Assembly: GCA_963693365.1 (NCBI GenBank)
Contig: CAVNZM010000015.1
Coordinates: 1,860,001 to 1,924,000, forward strand
Length of the DNA stretch: 64,000 nucleotides
Origin: Amoebidium appalachense
Taxonomy: Eukaryota; Protista; Ichthyosporea
Direction: 5' to 3'
Shown in pieces: positions 637 through 61,440 of the stretch (position 1 is its first letter; each line of letters starts with the position of its first letter). The notes under the pieces were generated by a model. It did no database searches and was not told the origin of the DNA. It saw nothing but the letters and a program-made list of their open reading frames with translations. A program made the translations under genes and the position numbers.

Positions 637-1002
637 GGCGTTTGTGTGTTTGTCCGCACTCTCCGGGATTTCGGAGGGAGGGGGGAGGGGAGGGGAGGAG
701 GGGAGGGTCACCCAACATCTCTCTCATTCCACCCACCCTCCCCAGCCCCCCACCCCAACCCCCTCCCTGCCATCCCCTTACCCATCTGCACTCATTCAAA
801 CCACACCTGCACAATCGGCCTGCTGCCCCTCAACGTCCATCTGTGTGCTCTCACATCCCAACCCGAAGTGCATAAATCCCACACACTTCTCTAATGCGTG
901 TAGTCTCTCTATTTGTGGTGTGTTGTTCCAAGCAGCAACGATGGGTTCAGCGAAACCAGGAACAGAGGCAGAATCCTGGATAAGACTGTGAAGGGTCATC
1001 AT
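249..1002 (-). CDS. 5' part of an uncharacterised spliced gene continuing beyond the left window edge; exons 807-1002 and 249-310
   Basis: ATG at 1002 opens MMTLHSLIQDSASVPGFAEPIVAAW...QQADCA. A phase-1 GT donor (805-806) joins the CAG acceptor (311-313) in frame to VIDIARTFLPVCYWLKSKHDP, followed by a GTAAGT donor at 247-248. No family recognised; start codon uncertain. Confidence 0.5.
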
Positions 1003-2226
1003 TCTTTCGGGTTGCTTGAAGCGCAACAAAAAAAGAAATCCTTCCACAGTGACGTGAATTTAGCTGAGTGCAGCTGTGTGCGCCGACTCTCCGGTCTTTG
1101 ACGAAGCCTGGGACCGGTAAGTGGTTGGTTCTTGCGCAGACAGGTTAACCGGAGCACACTGAGGGAAAACACGAGTGTTTGGTCATGGACCCTTACCGAC
1201 TTTCAACGACCCTCGAGCTCAGGTGAAACGGTTGACTTTACTATGCCAAAATGTTTCTTTTGGGAACACCCGAGGTTTCCGTATATTAGCCTTTTATAGT
1301 AGCACATCGATGATTGGTTGAACGCAGTACTAGAGCGGGGTATTCTACTCAGGGGGGTAGCATGTACGTGTCGTGCTATACGGTAACGGCTGCACGTCGT
1401 GCCCAAGCAAGTACCCTACCTCCTACAATACGCATACATTCAAGATAGCCCGTGCTGAGGTTCTGCCGGGGCAGCCTGCCAGCCAGGCCACGCGGCCTCC
1501 GGATATTCGCGGATCCGGCGCTGGCCATGCGTAGTGCTTGCATTCCTGAGAGCCAATCAAGAATGGCACAAAGTGGAACATGTGCTCGCGTGTGACTGAA
1601 TAACACCGTTTTTCTTCTTGGTAAACGTAGCAGGCAAACGTTTCATCGCCAGGAACATAAATCCTCCCATGCCCCCACGGAGCTTCAAGAGTGACAAGCA
1701 ATAAAAAGCCGGACATCATGCTGAGCATATGACCAATTCCAGTTATGCTTTATTTATTGATATCTATCTGGTGCGCAAATCCTTGGTGTTACATCTGGTA
1801 TTCTACCTCACACATCGAGAGTCGCAAAATAGCCGCGATAGACGGCTAGATTAGATTGAAACCACCACCTACCCCTATGCAAAATAACTCGACTTTATAG
1901 CGCCAAAAATCGTCAAAACATTTATACATTCGAGCATTGCCAGACCGAGCGAAGAAATCAATCGAGTACCCAAAAAAGAAAGGATTTATACCCTTATCAC
2001 CGAGACTACAGCACATGTAATAAACTTTATCGCCGCACGTTGCGTGAACTCGAACATGCACGAACACACAAGGAACAAACAGAGAACAACGAGAGTAGGG
2101 TGCCCCCCCCCCCCCAAAAAAAAATAAAAAAAAATAAAGAAAGAATAGAAAAAGGAAAGAAAACGAAATATTAAGGCTGCTGTTTCACATCTGCACATGG
2201 TGACGCGATTCATAACCCAGCTCCTG

Positions 2227-2572
2227 TTATGTGGGGAAAGCAGTGGTGTATCTCTTTGCCACCACCTGGTCTCCGTGGCTGGTGTATCCCGTCCCTGTAG
2301 ACGTTGTGGACACATAAATGTTAGCCTTTGTAACCCCCCCCCCCCCCCCCCCCCCCCCCCGCACACACACACCTCCCCCCTCTCCCTCTCCCACACCCAC
2401 CCATCCTTAGAAACACAAAACACATACAAGCACACGCCGCGGCCGCCACCGCCCCCCCCCACACACACACACACCCTTCACCCTTCAAAATACACGAGGA
2501 CAAGGAGGTACACTGACAGCTTTACACAACCCACGCATACATGCATACCCCCCCCCCCCCCCCCCCACCCCG

Positions 2573-2612
<40 letters not shown>

Positions 2613-3952
2613 CACACACAGCACCCACACCCACTACTCATAGATAGCACCCTAACTAGTGTACTGTCGGTGCTGTGTGGTAGACGGTAGTTTCCCTAAA
2701 GGGCCTGAAAAGGCTCTCCGGGATCAAAACGTGATAAAATAAATAAAAAAAACCAACACCCACACCCACGCGCACCACACACACACACACACGCAGGCAC
2801 GTACGCACGCACACACCCACACACACACACCCACCCACCCACCCACACACACACGTACACACACGCACACGCACACACACCTTCATGCTGCAGATCGACC
2901 ATTTCATTTGGTGGGCAGACAGCACTGCACGAGGGGCACTGCCTGGCCGGCTCCACGAGGTCTGTGCAGCACTTCTTGCAGAACACGTGCCCACAACTCC
3001 TCAACACTGTGCGTGCATACGTGCGTGCGTACGTGTGTGTACGTGTGTGTGAGGGAGTGAGTGTGTGTGTGTGCGCGCGCGAATGTGTGTGAGTACATAT
3101 CATTGATACGTGTGTTCGTTGTGTGTAAGTGTGGGTGGGCTCCGCACGGGAGGTGAAGGGAGGGGGAGGGAGGGAGGGGAGGGGGGTAGAATGCTTTTGA
3201 GCTCGAGGCACACATTCAGGGGGGGAGTTGGGGGGGGGGGCGTGGTGTATGTGGTGCGAGTATATATTGGTGCCGCAGTCACAGAAACACATTCTTGCAG
3301 GTGCATGCAAACAACGTCACACCAACCAACTCGTCCGAGTTTTGTGGATGTGCATGCCCAAGCATACACATACAAAACATTAGACACCCCAATTACATAG
3401 CACGAAGGATGGGATAATGTGACAGAGAAAAGGGGATTCTGAGATGAGCATGGGGGAGCGATGATAAGGGTGGGAGGAGGATAGACGGAGTGGAGGGGAC
3501 CTGGGGGGGAGGGGGGAGGAGGAGGAGGAGGAGGAGGAAATGAGGATAAGGGGGCGGTGGGGAGTTGAGGAATGGAAAAGAGGGTTGGGAAAAGGGTGGG
3601 GGGGGGGGGGGGGGGGGGGGGGTAAGGGGAAAGGGAGGAGGGGGGGGGGAGGGTAAGAGGCGAGGGGGGAAGGGAGAGAGAGAGGGGGGGGGGGGGGGGG
3701 GGGTGGGGGGGGGTGGGGGGTGGGGGGTTGTTATTATCTCAGTACATACCCACGACCTTGTTGTTGTTAGTGAGTGTTTTGATGCATCCAGGACACATCC
3801 ACCTATCATTACGGTCTCTGTACTTTGCCTCGGCCAATGAAACCTTGCCTACGGGCGTAAACTTGACAGATGACAGCTGCTTCATCCTGTGCCCAGATGA
3901 CAGGAGATTGAGTGATTTGCGGCCAATCAGGGGTCAGGGATAACACGATTTT

Positions 3953-4010
<58 letters not shown>

Positions 4011-4452
4011 GTATAAAAATATAAAAAAAGACTGCAAGCAAGCAAGAGAGAACACACGGCTCCAAAGTCAAGAGAAAATGCAAAGGAATTTTACAATCGG
4101 AAAATAAGTATCATGCCCACCCCGTGTTCTCCACTCCGCACCCCACCACCATTCATTATTCTTCCCCCCTGCTCCGGTTGATGGCAGCCAAATTCTATAC
4201 CAAAGGTTCAGGAAATATTAAATGGCTTTAACATACGTATGTGTGTGAGAGAGTAAAACTATGAAAACGGTGACCACGACGGGAGGAACGGAGTAAGAAT
4301 AGAAGCGCGAAATGCAGGGGGGGAGGGGGGGAAGGGGGGGGGGGGGGGGAGGAGACAAACTTTAGCGAATGGGGTGGATCGGAGGCAAGGCATGATGTCT
4401 TGTCTGCACCAGGCTTGAGTTTGGTGGCCTCAGCAGCTGGGGTGAGACCAGG

Positions 4453-4489
<37 letters not shown>

Positions 4490-5312
4490 CGCGCGCGCGC
4501 GCGTGTGTGTGTGTGTGCGTGCTTGAGTGAATGAGTAACGTGGGTACGTGTGCGTGCGTGTGTGTGTTACGTGTTGCGGGACGGGAGTGGTAGGTGGTGG
4601 GGATGGGGGGGATGCATGAGAAGACCATGATGTTTGTACACAAACGACAAAGAGAAATACAAGAATAACGCAAAGAGGGATTTCACGAGGGACCCAAGCA
4701 GAACTGTTTACAGATAACGTTAAATTCTCAAAAACTTGTGTTCCTCTCTCTCTCTCTCTCTCTTCTCCTCCCCCCCCCCCCCCCCCCCCCCCCCCCGCGC
4801 AAGCACCCCCCACCCTCCAGCTCCTCCTTTCCCTCTTCTCTCTCATAGTCTCTCTCCTTCTCCTGCCTCTCTTTTCTTTCCTTCTTTTCTTTTCTTTACT
4901 TATTTTTTTCTCCCCCCCTTCCCCCCCCCTCCCCCCCCCCCCCCCCTTTTTTTTTCCTTTTTTTTTTGGGGGGGGGGGAGGGGGAGGGGGGGATGGGGGG
5001 GGGGGGGGGGGGGAGGTCATACAATCCAGAAGGCCACGAGGGATTTTTCGTCTGCTTTGATGCTCCCCGTCTCTTTCTGCACATACCATATTTGGTAAGT
5101 GGCAAAAAACACCTCAAAAAATACTTCTCTCACAGGCATTTCTAGAGGCCCTCCCCCACCCCCCACCCCAACCAAAAGGAGGACATTGTGAAAAAGGTAA
5201 GAGAACAAAGGGGATGTGCCTTTTTTTTTCCCCCTTTGTTAAATGTGCCTAGTAGGTGTGTTTGGGTGTGTTTGAGTGTTCGTGTGTTCCTGTTCCCGTG
5301 TGTGTTTGTGTT

Positions 5313-5376
<64 letters not shown>

Positions 5377-5814
5377 CGCGCGCGCGCGCACGCGCATAGC
5401 ACAAAGGGGGCCCCTAATAAGCAGCCATTAAAATAGAAGGATTCAGCAGCCAAACTAAAAAAAGGGACTCTTTATAGCAGCCAACTTAAAAGGGAGGATT
5501 CTTTAGAGCAGCCAGCTTAAAAAAAAACCGAGATTCTTTCAAGTAGCCAACGTAACAAAGGGATTCCTTTAAGGAGCCAACTTCAAAAATTAAAAAAAAG
5601 GCAAGAGGTACGGCCAAACGCGTGCCAGTGTTGGCGCCGCTCGACGCACAGATATGGGGGTGTGGGTGGGTGGGTGTGGTGGTGGCGGTAATGAGGGAGG
5701 GAAGAAATGATACCAAAATCACTCTAGGAATAGTCAAATGCAAGGACATAGGCCATGAAAAACATCTTTATGTCGATCTAAACATGTATGTTTTTGCAGT
5801 GTAACCCAAATTGT

Positions 5815-5878
<64 letters not shown>

Positions 5879-6471
5879 CTACCTTTGCTGGCTGAACATC
5901 AGTGCTCGCGCCCTCGGTCTTTGGGTACAGTCCTGTGAGGTGTGAGGGGACAGTAAGGAATAAAATCACTAAACGCGGAACCAGGGGGGCGGGGGGGGGG
6001 GGGGGGGGGGGGGGGATGTGGGGGGAGGAGAGAGGGAGATGTTCTCATGTGGGAAAAGAGCCTGAAGAAATTTGAGGGGGGTGGGGGGAGGGTTGGGGGT
6101 GGGGGGGGTGGGGTTAATGTATGCATATTAGAGGGTTGGAAATATGGTGGAGGCAGCAAAGGACATCATATACTAGTCACAAAAATAAAAAACCCAAAAT
6201 TGAACCACAAAATCAGACAATAAAAAACGTGCAGGCAGAAGACACTCGAGGGGGAGGGAGAAAGGGGGTTGCGAGGTGGTACATGCAAGAAGTTACAAAC
6301 AAACACACCCATTGTTATTAGTATGTGCAAACAGCAATGCCGTTATTCAAACATGAACACGTGCAACATGTTACGGAGGTAGAGCCCATCCTCTCATTTT
6401 CATTTTCAATTTTTTCATTTGTTTTTGTTTGTGTGTACGCGCGTGTGAGTGTGTGTGTGTGTGTGCATATG

Positions 6472-6514
<43 letters not shown>

Positions 6515-6664
6515 TGTGCATGCGTGTCTGTGTTGTGTGTGCGTGTGCATGTGTGTGTGCGTGCGCGCGCACACATGTGTGTATATCCCTGTGTGCGAGT
6601 GTGTGTGTATTCTAGTTTGCATCTGAGTGGTTGCGTTTTTTTTTTGTTTTGTTTTTTTTTTTTG

Positions 6665-6701
<37 letters not shown>

Positions 6702-7578
6702 GGAGAGAGAGCAGAGAAGGGGGGGGGGGGGGGGAGGGGGGGGGGGTTTTGAATGCGGAACACGGTACAAAGTACGCATACACGACGAGAAGCATGGTGC
6801 AGGACACATGCAAAGGCAAACATTCAAGTATGCAACATCAGCCATGTGCACAGTATGCGTCATAAGCAGAGCCCATCCTCAGGGAGGACCCAAGTCATCA
6901 ATTGCGTCTGAGTTTCGACCCCTTAGCCCGCGTATATACGACACTCCAACTCAGACAGCAGCATCAACTGAGCTTGGGCGGGTCAACCCGTCTTGATCAA
7001 AGACGAGCAGGGTTGCTTATGCAAGCAAGGTGAGCAAAACGGTGAAGATGTGTGTGCAAACTAATGCAGTGCAGCGAAAAATGTGTATGTGCTTACAGAT
7101 GCACGACACAGAGCAACCATGCCCGGTTGCATGGAAGTAAAGCGGTCTCCACACAGTGGTCTGTCCTGAAAGGACACCTCTGAAAGAAGACTGGGGGGGT
7201 TTTGAATGCGGAACACGGTACAAAGTACGCATACACGACGAGAAGCATGGTGCAGGACACATGCAAAGGCAAACATTCAAGTATGCAACATCAGCCATGT
7301 GCACAGTATGCGTCATAAGCAGAGCCCATCCTCAGGGAGGACCCAAGTCATCAATTGCGTCTGAGTTTCGACCCCTTAGCCCGCGTATATACGACACTCC
7401 AACTCAGACAGCAGCATCAACTGAGCTTGGGCGGGTCAACCCGTCTTGATCAAAGACGAGGAGGGGGGGGGGGGGGGGGGGGGGAATGTATCCACTAAGA
7501 ACTAAGAAAGGCACAAAACAAAAAAACCCAAAAACAAAAACCCGCCCAACAAAAGGGGGGAGGGGGAAAGGGGGGGTG

Positions 7579-7610
<32 letters not shown>

Positions 7611-8152
7611 AATATATTTCACACACTCTGGTTGCTTGCATCGCGCACGCTCAGGCCATCGTCCCTGATGGCCTTTGCATCCTTTTGCGAACTATGTTCT
7701 TGTCCATCACAAGGGAGTTCTGGTCCGCATCAAACTGCTTCACTGCCTCCGAGAGAGCCTTCTGTCTCTCTGCTTCGTCCTTGGCCTGAGAGCACAAATA
7801 CACAGGCAGGCAGGCACACACACATGAAGGCACAGAGATACATGAAAGGCGCACATACACATGAATGGCAGGCGGACACACACACATGAAGGCACACAAA
7901 TACATTAAGGCGCACATGCACACACACACATGAAAAGGACACACGCACACATACCACAGCTAGGCACACAAAAACATGAAGGTACACACACATGAAGGCA
8001 CACACAAACACGAGGGAACACACACACACATTCACATGAAAGGCAAGCTCACATACACACAGGCAGGCCGCACATACACATGCAGGTACACACACACATG
8101 AAAGGCAGACACACACACACATGAAAGACACACACACGCGCGCGCACGCACA

Positions 8153-8188
<36 letters not shown>

Positions 8189-9855
8189 CACACATACAGG
8201 CAAATGCACACACACACACACACACGAAAAGAAAAAGAAAAAAGAAGATGATGAAGAAGATGAAGAAGAAGAGGAAGAAAGGGAAAGAAAAAAAAAGAAG
8301 ATAGGGGGGGGGGGGGGGGGGGGGGGGGGGATCATGGGGTATATGGTTAATCAACCAGGTGTTCTATACACCGGGTGCATGCATCCATGCCGTGGTTCTT
8401 CCCCCCCCCCTCCCGCGCTCCCCTCTTCCTCTCCAAATCACCACAAATCTCGACAACACACTTCATGCATCTACCCACTCATACTCAAGATGATACAAAC
8501 AACCCCCCCCCCCCCCTCCCCCTCACCACTACCACATCCCCTCCCTCCCCCCCCCCCTCCCCCCTCTCCCTCTGAACCACACCATGCAACACCCCCCCCC
8601 CTTCCCTCCCCCTCCCCTCGAACTACATACCACCATTCTCGATGCCCCCCCCTCCCCCCCCGCCCGCCCCCTTTACAGACATACACACGCCAAACCCGAA
8701 CGCCCATCATTCAGCTGCTCTGTCCACCCCACCAGCCACCTTCCCCCCCCTCCCGCCGCGCCCCCAAAAACACACCACACACGCACACGTCCACACACAT
8801 GCACAAGCAGCCCTCCCCCCCCCCCCTCCCCCCCCCCCCCCCACCCATCCACCCACCCACCCACCCACACAGCCACACCCACACACACCCACACACACAC
8901 CTCCAGCTCTCTCATCTGGTGCTCATATGCCTCCTGCTGTCTCTTTGCCTCTTTCTTTTGCTGCAGAAGACTCTCATAGATGCACTGCCGGCAAGACAGG
9001 TGGCCCTTGGGGCTGGGGTGGGAGGGGGGGGGTGGGAGGGGGGGGGGGGATGGGGAACAAGGGGGGGGGAGGAGAGGGGGAGGGGAGGAGGTTAGATTGT
9101 GCTTTAAGAGTATGAAGTACACATTCATAACGGACAAAACAACGCAGAGTGCAAACCACACACAAAGAGTATATATAGTAAGCAGAGCCCATGCTCAAAA
9201 GGGACCCAAGTCTACCACAGTACCCGAGTTTTAACCCATTCACCTCATCAACGAAACCCCACTCAGACATTACTTCACTTGAACATGGGTGGGTCGCCAG
9301 TCTGGGTTGACAGACGAGCAGGGTTACTCAGGAAGGAGGAAGGGGGGGAAAAAAAGGGAGGGAGGGGGGAAGGGGGGAGAACGAGAAAGGCGTACTCCCC
9401 TTCCCGGGAACCTCTCAGTAACATTACGTCACTACCCTAGGAAAATAAAAACTGGGACACCCATTTCTACAATATGGACACACGCTTACCAAATGACTGG
9501 GTCGTTTGCCATCTGTAGGCACAAATAACAGGCGTCGAAATCCCGCTTAGAGTGCCGCCCAAGACGCTCCTGAAGGGATAAAAACATGAGAAGGAATCTG
9601 GGGGTGATGAGTACATGTACCCTTAGATGGGAAGCGTGGAAATGACCTTGCTTGGGTAAGAACACCAAAGTTCCTCCTTGAGAATAAAAAGGATTGCCGG
9701 GGGTGGACACAAAAAAGCAGCTCACAACACCTGTATACCTGTACATCTGCTGGTGCTGTATCGAGATGATAGGAAGTCGCATGAGACAAGCATACAGGCC
9801 GACACACACACACGCACAACACACGCACACATGCGCGCGCGCACACATGCGCGCG

Positions 9856-9906
<51 letters not shown>

Positions 9907-10348
9907 AGTATACAGACAATCATGCACCCACGAACACAATGGCTGGTGTAAGGCTCCATCACAAAGGGAATAAACCCATGTGTAAACACAACCATACGGT
10001 CACATCCGTGCATACAAGTACACAAGCCCATGCAGAAAAGGACATGCACACACACACACAAAAGAACTTGTGGCGCATACACACACACACAAAGGCATTC
10101 AACTACAAATACGCACAGGAACACACAAGCCCACACCCACCCACACACACACACTCTCTCTCTTTCTCGTGTGCTCACACACACACACACACACACTCTC
10201 TCTCTCCCCCACCCTCCCTCCCCCCCCACTCCCCTGTCTCTACGCACACACACACACACACAAGCACACAAGCAAACGCGCGACACACACACACTCGACC
10301 ACAGGCATGTGCGCACACACGGAGACCCATACAGAAACACTACAAACA

Positions 10349-10379
<31 letters not shown>

Positions 10380-10619
10380 GCGCATGCACGCACGCACACG
10401 CACGCACACGACACACACGCACACACGCACACACGCGCACGTACGCACGCACACACACACACGCATACACATGCACACACACACAAACACATGCACACAC
10501 AAACACACACACAGCACATCTGCACACACACGCACCTCCTTTGTGCCATACTTCAGCTTGTTCCTCTCATCGTAAGTTAGAAAGGGCAGCGTCGTATTGT
10601 TTTTGGAATGACGTGGCAT
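2227..10619 (-). CDS. NOSIP: NOSIP-family (nitric oxide synthase-interacting protein) RING/U-box spliceosome-associated protein, ~320 aa; exons 10536-10619, 9490-9569, 8901-9012, 7627-7785, 5883-5932, 5023-5076, 4361-4452, 3750-3886, 2881-3006, 2227-2294
   Basis: Hallmark N-terminus [16 protein letters not shown]...[42 protein letters not shown], middle AFWIPGLTP, and C-terminal MCPGCIKTL...[13 protein letters not shown]...CPSC...LQHEGTGY. All introns are GT-AG and phase-compatible except exon 4, which needs a frame correction (see findings). Confidence 0.93.
5415..5585. repeat. Degenerate ~30-bp minisatellite (AAAAGGGATTCTTTAAGCAGCCAACT-like)
   Basis: About 6 recurrences of GATTC...AGCCA. 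Confidence 0.7.
6747..7019 (-). repeat. Intronic sense-strand element, copy A (structured head 6863-7019 plus type-1 tail)
   Basis: Aligns by eye to 9095-9329 and 23955-24228; contains nested stems TAAGCA/TGCTTA, GTCT/AGAC and GTCTGAGT/ACTCAGAC. Confidence 0.75.
7200..7460 (-). repeat. 261-bp direct duplicate of 6747-7007 (copy A')
   Basis: Appears identical to 6747-7007 and lacks the outermost 12 nt of the head, which are replaced by a G run. Confidence 0.9.
9095..9329 (-). repeat. Intronic sense-strand element, copy B (head 9179-9329 plus type-1 tail)
   Basis: Shares ACCCTGCTCGTCT, TGTCTGAGT, GACTTGGGTCC and ATGGGCTCTGCTTA with copy A; its tail aligns to 24141-24228. Confidence 0.75.
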
Positions 10620-11214: not shown

Positions 11215-17087
<5,873 letters not shown>

Positions 17088-18921: not shown

Positions 18922-18994
18922 TGCCCTGGGTGAGGATCGAACTCACGACCTTAGGATTATGAGACCTACGCGCTACCTACTACGCTACCAGGAC
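18922..18994 (-). tRNA. tRNA-Met(CAT), eukaryotic elongator type, 73 nt, intronless
   Basis: Reverse complement GTCCTGGTAGCGTAGTAGGTAGCGCGTAGGTCTCATAATCCTAAGGTCGTGAGTTCGATCCTCACCCAGGGCA folds as a cloverleaf with anticodon loop CTCATAA, T-loop TTCGATC and the U31-U39 opposition typical of elongator tRNA-Met. Confidence 0.97.
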
Positions 18995-20100
18995 GTTGTG
19001 CCAAAGCCGCTTCTTGCACTTATGACCATTACAAAGCTAATTATGTGCGGCAACATTTGCACACAGTTTCAGTATGTACCAGGCACTTCCATGATTGCTG
19101 CAATTCGTTTCACACAACTTTTGAGATGATACAGGCGACCACAAAATGAACATAAATGTTCTACACTAGTACACTACAGTACAGCAATAAAAAGGGGTCT
19201 GACAGACTCTGACTGGCTAACAAGCAGTGACGTTGCATTCCGCGGGATAAATCCCTGAGTTTTGATTGATCAGTCTTAGCCATACTAATCCTTCAAAACT
19301 TCATTTGTGGGGGCTGCATGCTTTGCGTATTTGCGCTCCTTTTCACCTTGCCACCTTTTTATTTTGCTTAAGTGCTGTATCCGATCCTACTTTTGAATAG
19401 TATAATTAAACCATTATATAAAAACATTAAAACTACAAACATGTATTTTGATTCTAATTTTTCCCCCTCCACCTTAATTTTACAACCAAAAAAAAAAAAA
19501 AAAAAAAAAAAAAACAATCAGCTAGTAAGTCTAGAGTCAGATCTTGCCTGAAATTTTCCACGTTACTATGCCAGCACCCCCTGCTTTGAAGATACGGGGG
19601 ATCCCCTTCATGTTCGTGAGCATAAACGAAACGAAAGTCGATTACTCACTGGTACCACTGTTTCACCAAGTCACAAGACAGATGACCGAAGCGAAAGGGA
19701 GCTGTAGGATATGATATGACATGAAGTGTGTGTGTAGGTATATACTGCAGTTCATTGCACTTAGATAGACATGTGTAGTTAAGCAACTATAGTGCTACAC
19801 TAGTAACCAATGGCACGCACTGACTTATTTTCCGATCTGTTGTATGACATGGGATACATTCAAGCAATAACGCAAGTGTCAGTCCCAAAGCTCGCAACTT
19901 CATGAAACAACACAAAAAAGCAGGAGTATGCGCGCGTATGCCAATAAAAATCAAAGAGTGGAATCCATGAAGAGACCCCACCACCAAAAACACTTTTACC
20001 TCTAGCTTTGTTTACCATTCTCTCATTCTCTCTTCTTTAACATTCTCGCATCATACTTCTTTCCAAACCTTAGAGAAGTCAATCCCAACTTTTGGTCACT

Positions 20101-26319
<6,219 letters not shown>

Positions 26320-27114
26320 GCAGTTCAATTTCTTGTATCACGCAAAGCGTAGCATAAACGTCTTAAACTTTGAGTAATGCATACCCCCCCCCCCCCCCCC
26401 CTTTTCTTCCCCCCCGTCCCCCCCCCCCTCCCCCCCCCCCCCCCCAAAAAAAAAATAAAAAAATAAAAATAAAAAATAAAATAACCTGCATACCTGTGAA
26501 TGTTCTCGCTCCTTCCTCTTCCCCTCTTCTCTTTTCTTTCCATATTTTTCTCCAATCACCTTTACAGTTCCAAGGCATATAAATAACCCCGAAAGCTGGA
26601 TGTGCTCTCCGTCCTGCCGGAAACTTTTGTATTTTCGGAATGTCTGTGAGATATCTCGCTAGCTTATGGGCAGTGATAAGTCGGTCGAGTCTCGATTTTT
26701 TCTGGCTTGCTATCTGCAATTTTTTGTAATTTTTTTTTTTTGTGCAGAGAGAAAAGCCTGCAAAGTGTCACATAATGCCAATATTAGCACCATTCTGGCT
26801 TTAGATTACGATTTTGGCCCCTAGTAAGAGGAAACAGTGGGTTTCTTTTTTCTTTTTTTTTTTCTTTTTTTTTTTCCCGGCTTGGCTGTTTATCTCGTTT
26901 TTTTTAATGCAGCGTTGAATTATTCTGGCTCGGTTGTGTCGTATATCCATTTAAGGCTTATGCAAGTCCATGTAGATGTACATTTCCCTTAAAGCGTGCA
27001 CAAGCACGGACACGCACATGCACATATGGAGACGCGCACACGCATACCTGCACCTACACATACAGGCACGTGCGCGCGAATGTGCACACACACCCACACA
27101 CACGTGTGTGCACA

Positions 27115-28077: not shown

Positions 28078-61440
<33,363 letters not shown>

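Follow-up and report, generated by a model that had tools for sequence, protein, structure and literature searches.

The structured RNA that had been predicted in two introns of the NOSIP gene of Amoebidium is not a unique intronic RNA. It forms the core of a short non-coding repeat that is dispersed through this genome at high copy, and NOSIP is a bystander host. Our study identified eight insertion sites of this repeat in the window, that is, the whole 64-kb stretch of DNA that was analyzed; all eight have a common 3' end, and their 5' ends differ by truncation to varying points. The repeat comprises two diverged subfamilies, A and B, and also occurs in at least two genes of the window besides NOSIP. 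The sequence is very probably a dispersed mobile repeat. Our preferred reading, to which we assign a probability of about 0.5, is that it is a non-autonomous Penelope-like (Chlamys/retrozyme-type) retroelement with a core predicted to fold into a k-turn arm.

The original prediction described two homologous copies of the RNA, A and B, in NOSIP introns. This homology is real: copy A (7019-6863) and copy B (9330-9179), both on the minus strand, are 69.9% identical over 156 nt (E 7e-10). The positions predicted for A proved exact, and the start predicted for B was one base off. The placement was also right, since both copies are on the NOSIP sense strand, B in intron 2 and A in intron 4. The host gene (2240-10619, minus strand; exons include 10619-10536, 9571-9490, approximately 9012-8901, and 7787-7627) was assigned from its exon translations and a Pfam zf-NOSIP match; one exon is 100% identical to P0001 (EukProt label Amoebidium_parasiticum), and the spliced joint 9012-9490 is present in runs X9 and X10.

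Several features of the region had escaped the original prediction, namely a third copy (A'), a 273-bp direct repeat, a common 3' tail, six further sites, and a very high copy number. A' (core 7465-7316) is situated 453 bp upstream of A inside the direct repeat, which is 99.6% identical between its two arms (7193-7465, minus strand, matches 6740-7012 at 272 of 273 positions). The order at this locus is poly-C, truncated core, tail, C7, a 173-nt leader, full core, tail, and poly-C. A' is a 5'-truncated core with its tail and a poly-C 5' flank; it is followed by the C7 run at the head-to-tail junction (7193-7199), the leader of unit A (7020-7192, minus strand), which joins the junction to the core and has high depth in the DNA runs, the core of A, and the tail of A (6747-6862, minus strand), which aligns with the tails at the other sites and is followed by poly-C. 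Upstream of 7030, other copies diverge from A, as seen in loose contig ends. The arrangement is a pseudo-LTR-like, head-to-tail tandem of 1.6 units with a period of 453 and was found at one of the eight sites of the window. A' carries the minority letters of A at all five variable positions checked, as would be expected if both came from one template. An assembly artefact was considered as the source of the tandem and discarded: the C7 junction is bridged by contigs of diverged copies (records 20 and 21 in X3; record 28 in X9), though no contig spans this particular locus.

The tail of B (9092-9178, minus strand; blastn and nhmmer) precedes a C-rich tract, and blastn searches with it led to pieces at 24.1-24.2 kb (+), 47.2-47.3 kb (-), 58.8-58.9 kb (-), and 21.8 kb (+). 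The first is a 5'-truncated copy with the core end and tail, located between MgtE-type exons (24132-24227, plus strand; blastn E 1.5e-14 with B; nhmmer), and the second keeps the last third of the core and the tail in an intron of an apparent SacI-domain gene (47188-47316, minus strand; blastn E 6e-7 with B; nhmmer). The remaining sites are tail-only copies: one between C runs (58839-58923, minus strand; blastn E 3e-4; nhmmer) and a weak one at 21726-21805 (plus strand; blastn E 0.047; nhmmer E 0.0017). The nhmmer profile added the sites at 41.5 kb (41483-41562, minus strand; E 7.5e-5) and 50.8 kb (50797-50873, minus strand; E 0.0016), of which the latter is the weakest of all; since this profile contained the terminal C's, these two are weaker cases. 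A search of the window with our revised structure model (R1) returned no further whole core.

The number of copies in the genome is very high. A 201-bp stretch of A (6850-7050) is matched by 1,012 contigs in DNA run X1 and 2,185 in DNA run X3, with a summed depth of 0.46-1.2 million and 1.0-1.7 million, respectively, and a single-copy exon contig has depths of 21 (X1) and 18 (X3). It is important to note that summed contig depth does not equal copy number; divided by 31, the worst-case overlap, it still amounts to 700-3,000. Extrapolation from the density in the window gives 6,000-25,000 copies, assuming a genome of approximately 200 Mb. Runs X9 and X10, presumed to be RNA, also contain sequences of the family, in contigs that carry no information on strand, ends, or level; run X14 had no matching contig, which is no proof of absence. 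Relatives outside Amoebidium were searched for in metagenomes with a strict pattern, which gave no match. A loose pattern gave 24 metagenomic and nine viral matches and a 5' pattern one viral match, none of them alike beyond the pattern itself: when pattern matches were rechecked, none of 33 was found with the 5' profile and the best scored 9.2 bits with model R1. Our literature search, which most subscription papers fell outside, turned up no description of this repeat family, nor any of a k-turn within an element of this type. Titles on Amoebidium ribozymes concerned only mitochondrial introns or genomes, and the portions of PMC11244446 that were available (from its main text and two supplements) mention neither SINE nor Penelope. 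The repeat library of that study may already include the family among its "unknown" entries; we regard the element as an undescribed-looking structured retroposon.

The insertion sites point to a C-rich target. A C-rich tract begins 24-33 nt past the tail anchor at all eight sites, as compared with 9.7% of background positions (1,734 of 17,803), and six of the eight also have a C- or CA-rich 5' flank. All eight sites are also in the sense orientation relative to their apparent host gene (NOSIP, MgtE-type, SacI-domain, and, weakly, a RhoGAP side), where orientation at the non-NOSIP sites rests on Pfam exon matches and candidate exons and the host of the 41.5-kb site is weakly assigned; homologue searches for mapping the neighboring genes yielded nothing usable. 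In the genes counted, the sense strand carries 72 of the 106 C tracts, which gives P ~0.045 for eight sense sites out of eight. The strand agreement with NOSIP is thus partly expected, because the C-run target is itself sense-biased, and a slight sense-strand excess beyond the C-tract bias remains. This orientation, consistent across the eight sites, is one argument for a dedicated RNA encoded in the NOSIP introns, snoRNA-like or a switch, or for a retroposed snoRNA-like RNA; another is that the k-turn strands of the core resemble the B/C or C'/D' motif of U3. We nevertheless consider such an RNA very improbable, given the very high copy number, the truncated copies in other genes, and the decay of B, together with the lack of terminal C/D boxes, of an H/ACA layout, and of any Rfam match. 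The proposal of an unannotated NOSIP intronic RNA acting as a switch or ribozyme is not supported, the sequence being the core of a dispersed high-copy repeat in which neither a hammerhead core nor a known ribozyme family was found.

The secondary structure proposed for the minus strand was only partly sustained. The closing stem P1 forms six of six pairs in both A and B, with two G.U in B, and the CCC/GGG stem and the GUCU/AGAC hairpin are in the sequence. The stem GUCUGAGU/ACUC(A/G)G(A/G)(C/U) is likewise present, but it is not "mostly G-U" in B, where three of eight pairs are of this kind; one of these three is decay, being A-U in the family majority, and two are the family state. The GACCC/3'GGGUC helix, claimed for both copies, has a pair probability of 0.70 in the core of B but only 0.01 in A, and the C at 6888 breaks it in 81% (X1) and 66% (X3) of the A-like depth. 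An alternative, mutually exclusive fold had also been proposed: its pairs exist, 11 of 11 in B and nine of 11 in A, but its probability in B is only 0.02, and the strand involved has a third partner of 7 bp in A. Alternatives of this kind are not necessarily the sign of a switch, because the core appears to be built of repeated CCC..CUC motifs and their complements. The tails gave no consensus structure (0 pairs in seven sequences).

The folding energies of the single copies are weak. A folds barely better than its shuffles (z -1.5; 14 of 200 as good) and B no better at all (z 0.0; 100 of 200 as good); the original prediction had named the outcome seen for B as evidence against itself. Its preference for the minus strand agrees with RNAalifold of A and B (minus strand: -25.3, 37 pairs, and two double changes; plus strand: -18.1, 26 pairs, and one) but not with the energies of single copies, in which the plus strand is no worse (z -1.9 for A and -0.95 for B). 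No known Rfam family was found: at the gathering score the window contains only a tRNA. At E<=10, the region 6500-9700 and each core gave chance matches alone (E 2.4-8.7 in the cores), such as microRNA models on simple repeats and Flavivirus_DB at 11.7 bits against 41.5. A conserved, RNA-like structure on the minus strand is supported for the central arm, where double changes distinguish the subfamilies, the family majority has U.G pairs, and a standard k-turn is predicted.

Family-wide comparison shows that the core was better paired in the source element. The core of B has at least 11 positions with other family letters; at the 11 listed, these are the majority in X3, and at 10 of them in X1. 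When placed in B, ten of the 11 majority letters either give a Watson-Crick pair where B has a wobble or mismatch or bring back a sheared G.A; the remaining one falls in a loop. B is thus a decayed copy, and the comparison shows, at the level of predicted pairs, a source element better paired than B. Because the majority letters were in view when part of the model was drawn, 10 of 11 is no independent P-value. In the 14-bp stem, A and B-majority differ by three double changes and three pair-keeping single changes, with seven identical pairs and one mismatch, a comparison of only two subfamilies with whole cores and unphased variants.

The predicted arm of A (6889-6978, minus strand, from the structure model of A) is composed of P3 (6978-6973/6889-6894), a C helix formed by UCA 6971-6969 and UGA 6897-6895, the bulge GUU 6968-6966, then G6965.A6898, A6964.G6899, and U6963.U6900, and a long stem up to 6948/6914. 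In B-majority the bulge is AGU, followed by G.A, A.G, and then A.G at 3b.3n, where A has GUU and U.U. The arm is therefore predicted to fit the standard k-turn definition in A, and in B when read with majority letters; U.U and A.G at 3b.3n are both named as N3-forming in the part of PMC5061560 available to us. Such a C helix, 3-nt bulge, G.A, A.G, and long NC helix are also the features of the Kt-7, box C/D, and U4 k-turns (same part of PMC5061560), whereas the snoRNA termini and guides of box C/D systems are absent from the core. Nine of 2,000 shuffles of A gave a k-turn with such a stem, the pattern having been set after seeing it. Through a two-letter swap, copy B itself lacks the k-turn, whose non-bulged strand is retained in the independent 47.3-kb copy. 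The GACCC strand may pair instead with the GGGUC of the end loop of the arm (seven pairs in A and seven of seven in B-majority); this helix is near chance (197 of 3,000 shuffles for A and 966 of 3,000 for the B copy). Loose-end consensuses, which are unphased, hint at a C-G to U-A change in it. Telomerase RNA, SRP/Alu, and vault/Y RNA were considered and dropped. In SECIS elements, helix II ends at an apical AA. The tandem G.A arm resembles the SECIS core, an element carried by some Naiad PLEs, but A and B have GG after the stem, their copies are intronic and not in selenoprotein 3' UTRs (PMC8557442, as far as its text was available), and no Rfam SECIS match was obtained.

The stems might also be features of DNA, belonging to a non-autonomous DNA element, either a rolling-circle element of the Helitron/Replitron type or a MITE whose inverted ends are imperfect. 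The core does have an imperfect inverted repeat at its ends, which in A is bounded by TA; the energy z-scores favor neither strand; and rolling-circle elements make use of hairpins and have a fixed direction of insertion, according to the available portion of PMC10288648. This inverted repeat, however, is internal, with a conserved tail of 85-120 nt beyond it, and in the truncated copies its left arm is missing but the tail is still there. The flanks are C runs and not AT/TT or TA, and the U.G pairs and sheared G.A are found on one strand, so that we judge a DNA element quite improbable.

The Penelope-like reading draws on the resemblance to the Chlamys elements (MRC1, Chlamys-N4_cRei), with which our repeat has in common (C)n/(CA)n targets, intronic location, short 5'-truncated copies, pseudo-LTR or head-to-tail partial tandems, a non-coding unit, and the lack of a hammerhead (PMC8557442 and PMC9977147, in the parts available). 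In that text of PMC8557442, non-autonomous Chlamys are described with pLTRs, head-to-tail insertions, and a (C)n and (CA)n bias, mostly without a hammerhead; the hosts reported there are green algae, spike mosses, and slime molds, and neither Amoebidium nor ichthyosporeans are mentioned. PMC9977147, in the section available, describes short, 5'-truncated insertions, all intronic, with a (C)n target. The differences are the host, an ichthyosporean, and the conserved k-turn-containing core, which goes unmentioned for Chlamys in those portions of both papers. Metazoan non-LTR retrozymes are also similar in their short non-coding tandem unit, insertions of more than unit length, presumed PLE mobilization, and read-through transcription (PMC7761336 and bioRxiv 10.64898/2026.07.22.740005, each available in part). 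According to the same partial sources, their more-than-unit insertions come from circular RNA and need the hammerhead, they are excluded from introns, where the Amoebidium repeat is found (bioRxiv 10.64898/2026.07.22.740005), and their units measure about 150-300 nt, as opposed to 453 nt in A. The Amoebidium unit has no type I hammerhead: a search of either strand for the hammerhead core plus stem II, with one deviation allowed, found no match. For an autonomous partner, 300 of the 561 candidate frames of the window were searched, with no RT or GIY-YIG match.

In a Penelope-like mechanism, the repeat unit would be transcribed by host read-through, and the C-rich 3' end of its RNA would anneal, within a (C)n tract, to the G strand, where it would prime reverse transcription by a borrowed PLE-type RT (target-primed). 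Truncated copies would result from early stops of reverse transcription, and the partial tandem from a template that was itself tandem or circular. The k-turn arm is predicted to protect or present the RNA by binding the RT or a protein of the L7Ae family (15.5K/Snu13), a role that would explain why pairing was kept in source elements and decayed in dead copies such as B.

In the main rival reading, a (C)n-targeting LINE moves a Pol III SINE; the promoter of this SINE would be tRNA-derived and remodelled, and the conserved stem would be partly promoter. Compared with the A-box and B-box consensus, A and B have an A-box with one mismatch and a B-box with two, as many as the B-box of the tRNA-Met of the window, at the same place in both copies. 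Such a pair arises in 40 and 31 of 1,500 shuffles (2-3%); the layout of head, tail, and simple repeat with 5' truncation is also that of a SINE, and one loose end in X3 has a closer B-box. Against this, the first 61-62 nt of the core precede the boxes and copies reach 55-235 nt upstream; their spacing is 33-36, that is, 8-11 nt too close with respect to the 44 in tRNA; T4 runs occur inside B; and the cores have neither a cloverleaf nor a tRNA match. The simple repeat is poly-C here and not the poly-A of tRNA-derived SINEs, and head-to-tail partial tandems fit PLEs better. On balance, we consider a SINE rather unlikely. A TRIM was also dropped, no PBS being seen by eye.

A further possibility, compatible with the Penelope-like reading, adds catalysis to it. 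In this retrozyme-like scheme, which we hold to be improbable, the core would be a ribozyme with a fold not yet described, releasing monomers from tandem transcripts by self-cleavage; the monomers would then be circularized and reverse-transcribed. The 5' half of the core has a loose likeness to L1/P2/L4 of twister, and the 3' L1 strand of twister is absent from the core. The core has unpaired invariant letters at both ends in A and B, and a GACCC/loop-GGGUC pseudoknot is possible, complete in B-majority. A unit of ~300-450 nt in a 1.6-unit tandem would be a product of circular templates (PMC7761336, from the part available), and any cleavage would need another motif, since the unit has no hammerhead core. 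The evidence to the contrary includes the near-chance frequency of the loop helix, the lack of any Rfam ribozyme match at E<=10, and fits of an HDV descriptor, too loose to decide, that differ between A and B. The twister-sister-like strand pair given in the available text of PMC11620745 is absent from the core (for the twister context, PMC6154101 and PMC10085705 were likewise available in part), and most Chlamys spread without any ribozyme, as stated in the portion of PMC8557442 at hand. The full version of this proposal, in which a (C)n-targeting Penelope-type element has a k-turn-bent, pseudoknotted core that constitutes a new class of self-cleaving ribozyme and cuts and circularizes its own monomers, is accordingly a long shot.

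These results have little effect on the biology of NOSIP. If the repeat is only a SINE, it is a family for which our literature search found no description, yet an ordinary one. How Penelope-like elements without a hammerhead recognize or process their own RNA is an open question (PMC8557442, available portion), and a hammerhead-free ribozyme, if true, would explain the processing of tandem transcripts in hammerhead-less PLEs of an animal relative. A k-turn in the RNA of a mobile element would suggest borrowing of the host snoRNP/U4 protein 15.5K. With thousands of copies and at least two subfamilies in a culturable protist, the family would supply ample material for covariation analysis and allow this to be tested directly, and the Penelope-like reading, if true, would extend (C)n-targeting PLE-like elements to ichthyosporeans.

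The repeat element comprises more than two subfamilies, because contigs derived from other copies diverge from the window sequence on copy A, located in NOSIP intron 4, and on its truncated upstream neighbor A', at positions 7030, 7015, 6977, and 7337, and at these loose ends they present a leader, a first stem, or a strand of P3 (one stem of the predicted k-turn arm) unlike those of copy A. In the differing leaders, a junction C run apparently lies about 25 nt upstream of 7030. Two further minus-strand stretches, 6381-6393 and 39265-39287, give short nhmmer hits on the core's 3' end (E 0.7-1.2) and are possibly old fragments; the count of eight element sites in the window leaves them out.

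In exon 4 of NOSIP, the window has one T fewer at position 7682 than each of the four sequencing runs compared. The extra T keeps the frame of this exon open, matching the protein P0001; the frameshift in the window is likely an assembly error.

Among the other genes of the window, an intron-containing TrmA-type tRNA methyltransferase (13625-17084; exons matching Pfam tRNA_U5-meth_tr, best E 9e-29) and an MgtE-type transporter (about 20070-26320) lie on the plus strand, and a tRNA-Met(CAT) gene (18922-18994), a RhoGAP gene (about 36650-36780), and a SacI-domain gene (about 44500-60640) on the minus strand. The catalytic motif is CX5R, and the translation of a candidate SacI exon at 50479-50538 shows a deviant variant of it (12 residues, not shown). 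The region of this gene also includes a tandem repeat (53749-54310) whose period is about 88 bp and whose units are 87-94% identical.

The whole window contains 155 C or G runs at least 12 long; within genes, the sense strand is the one that more often carries the C. Long homopolymers may alternatively be long-read errors; insertions of the Amoebidium repeat element may have seeded or lengthened part of these runs.
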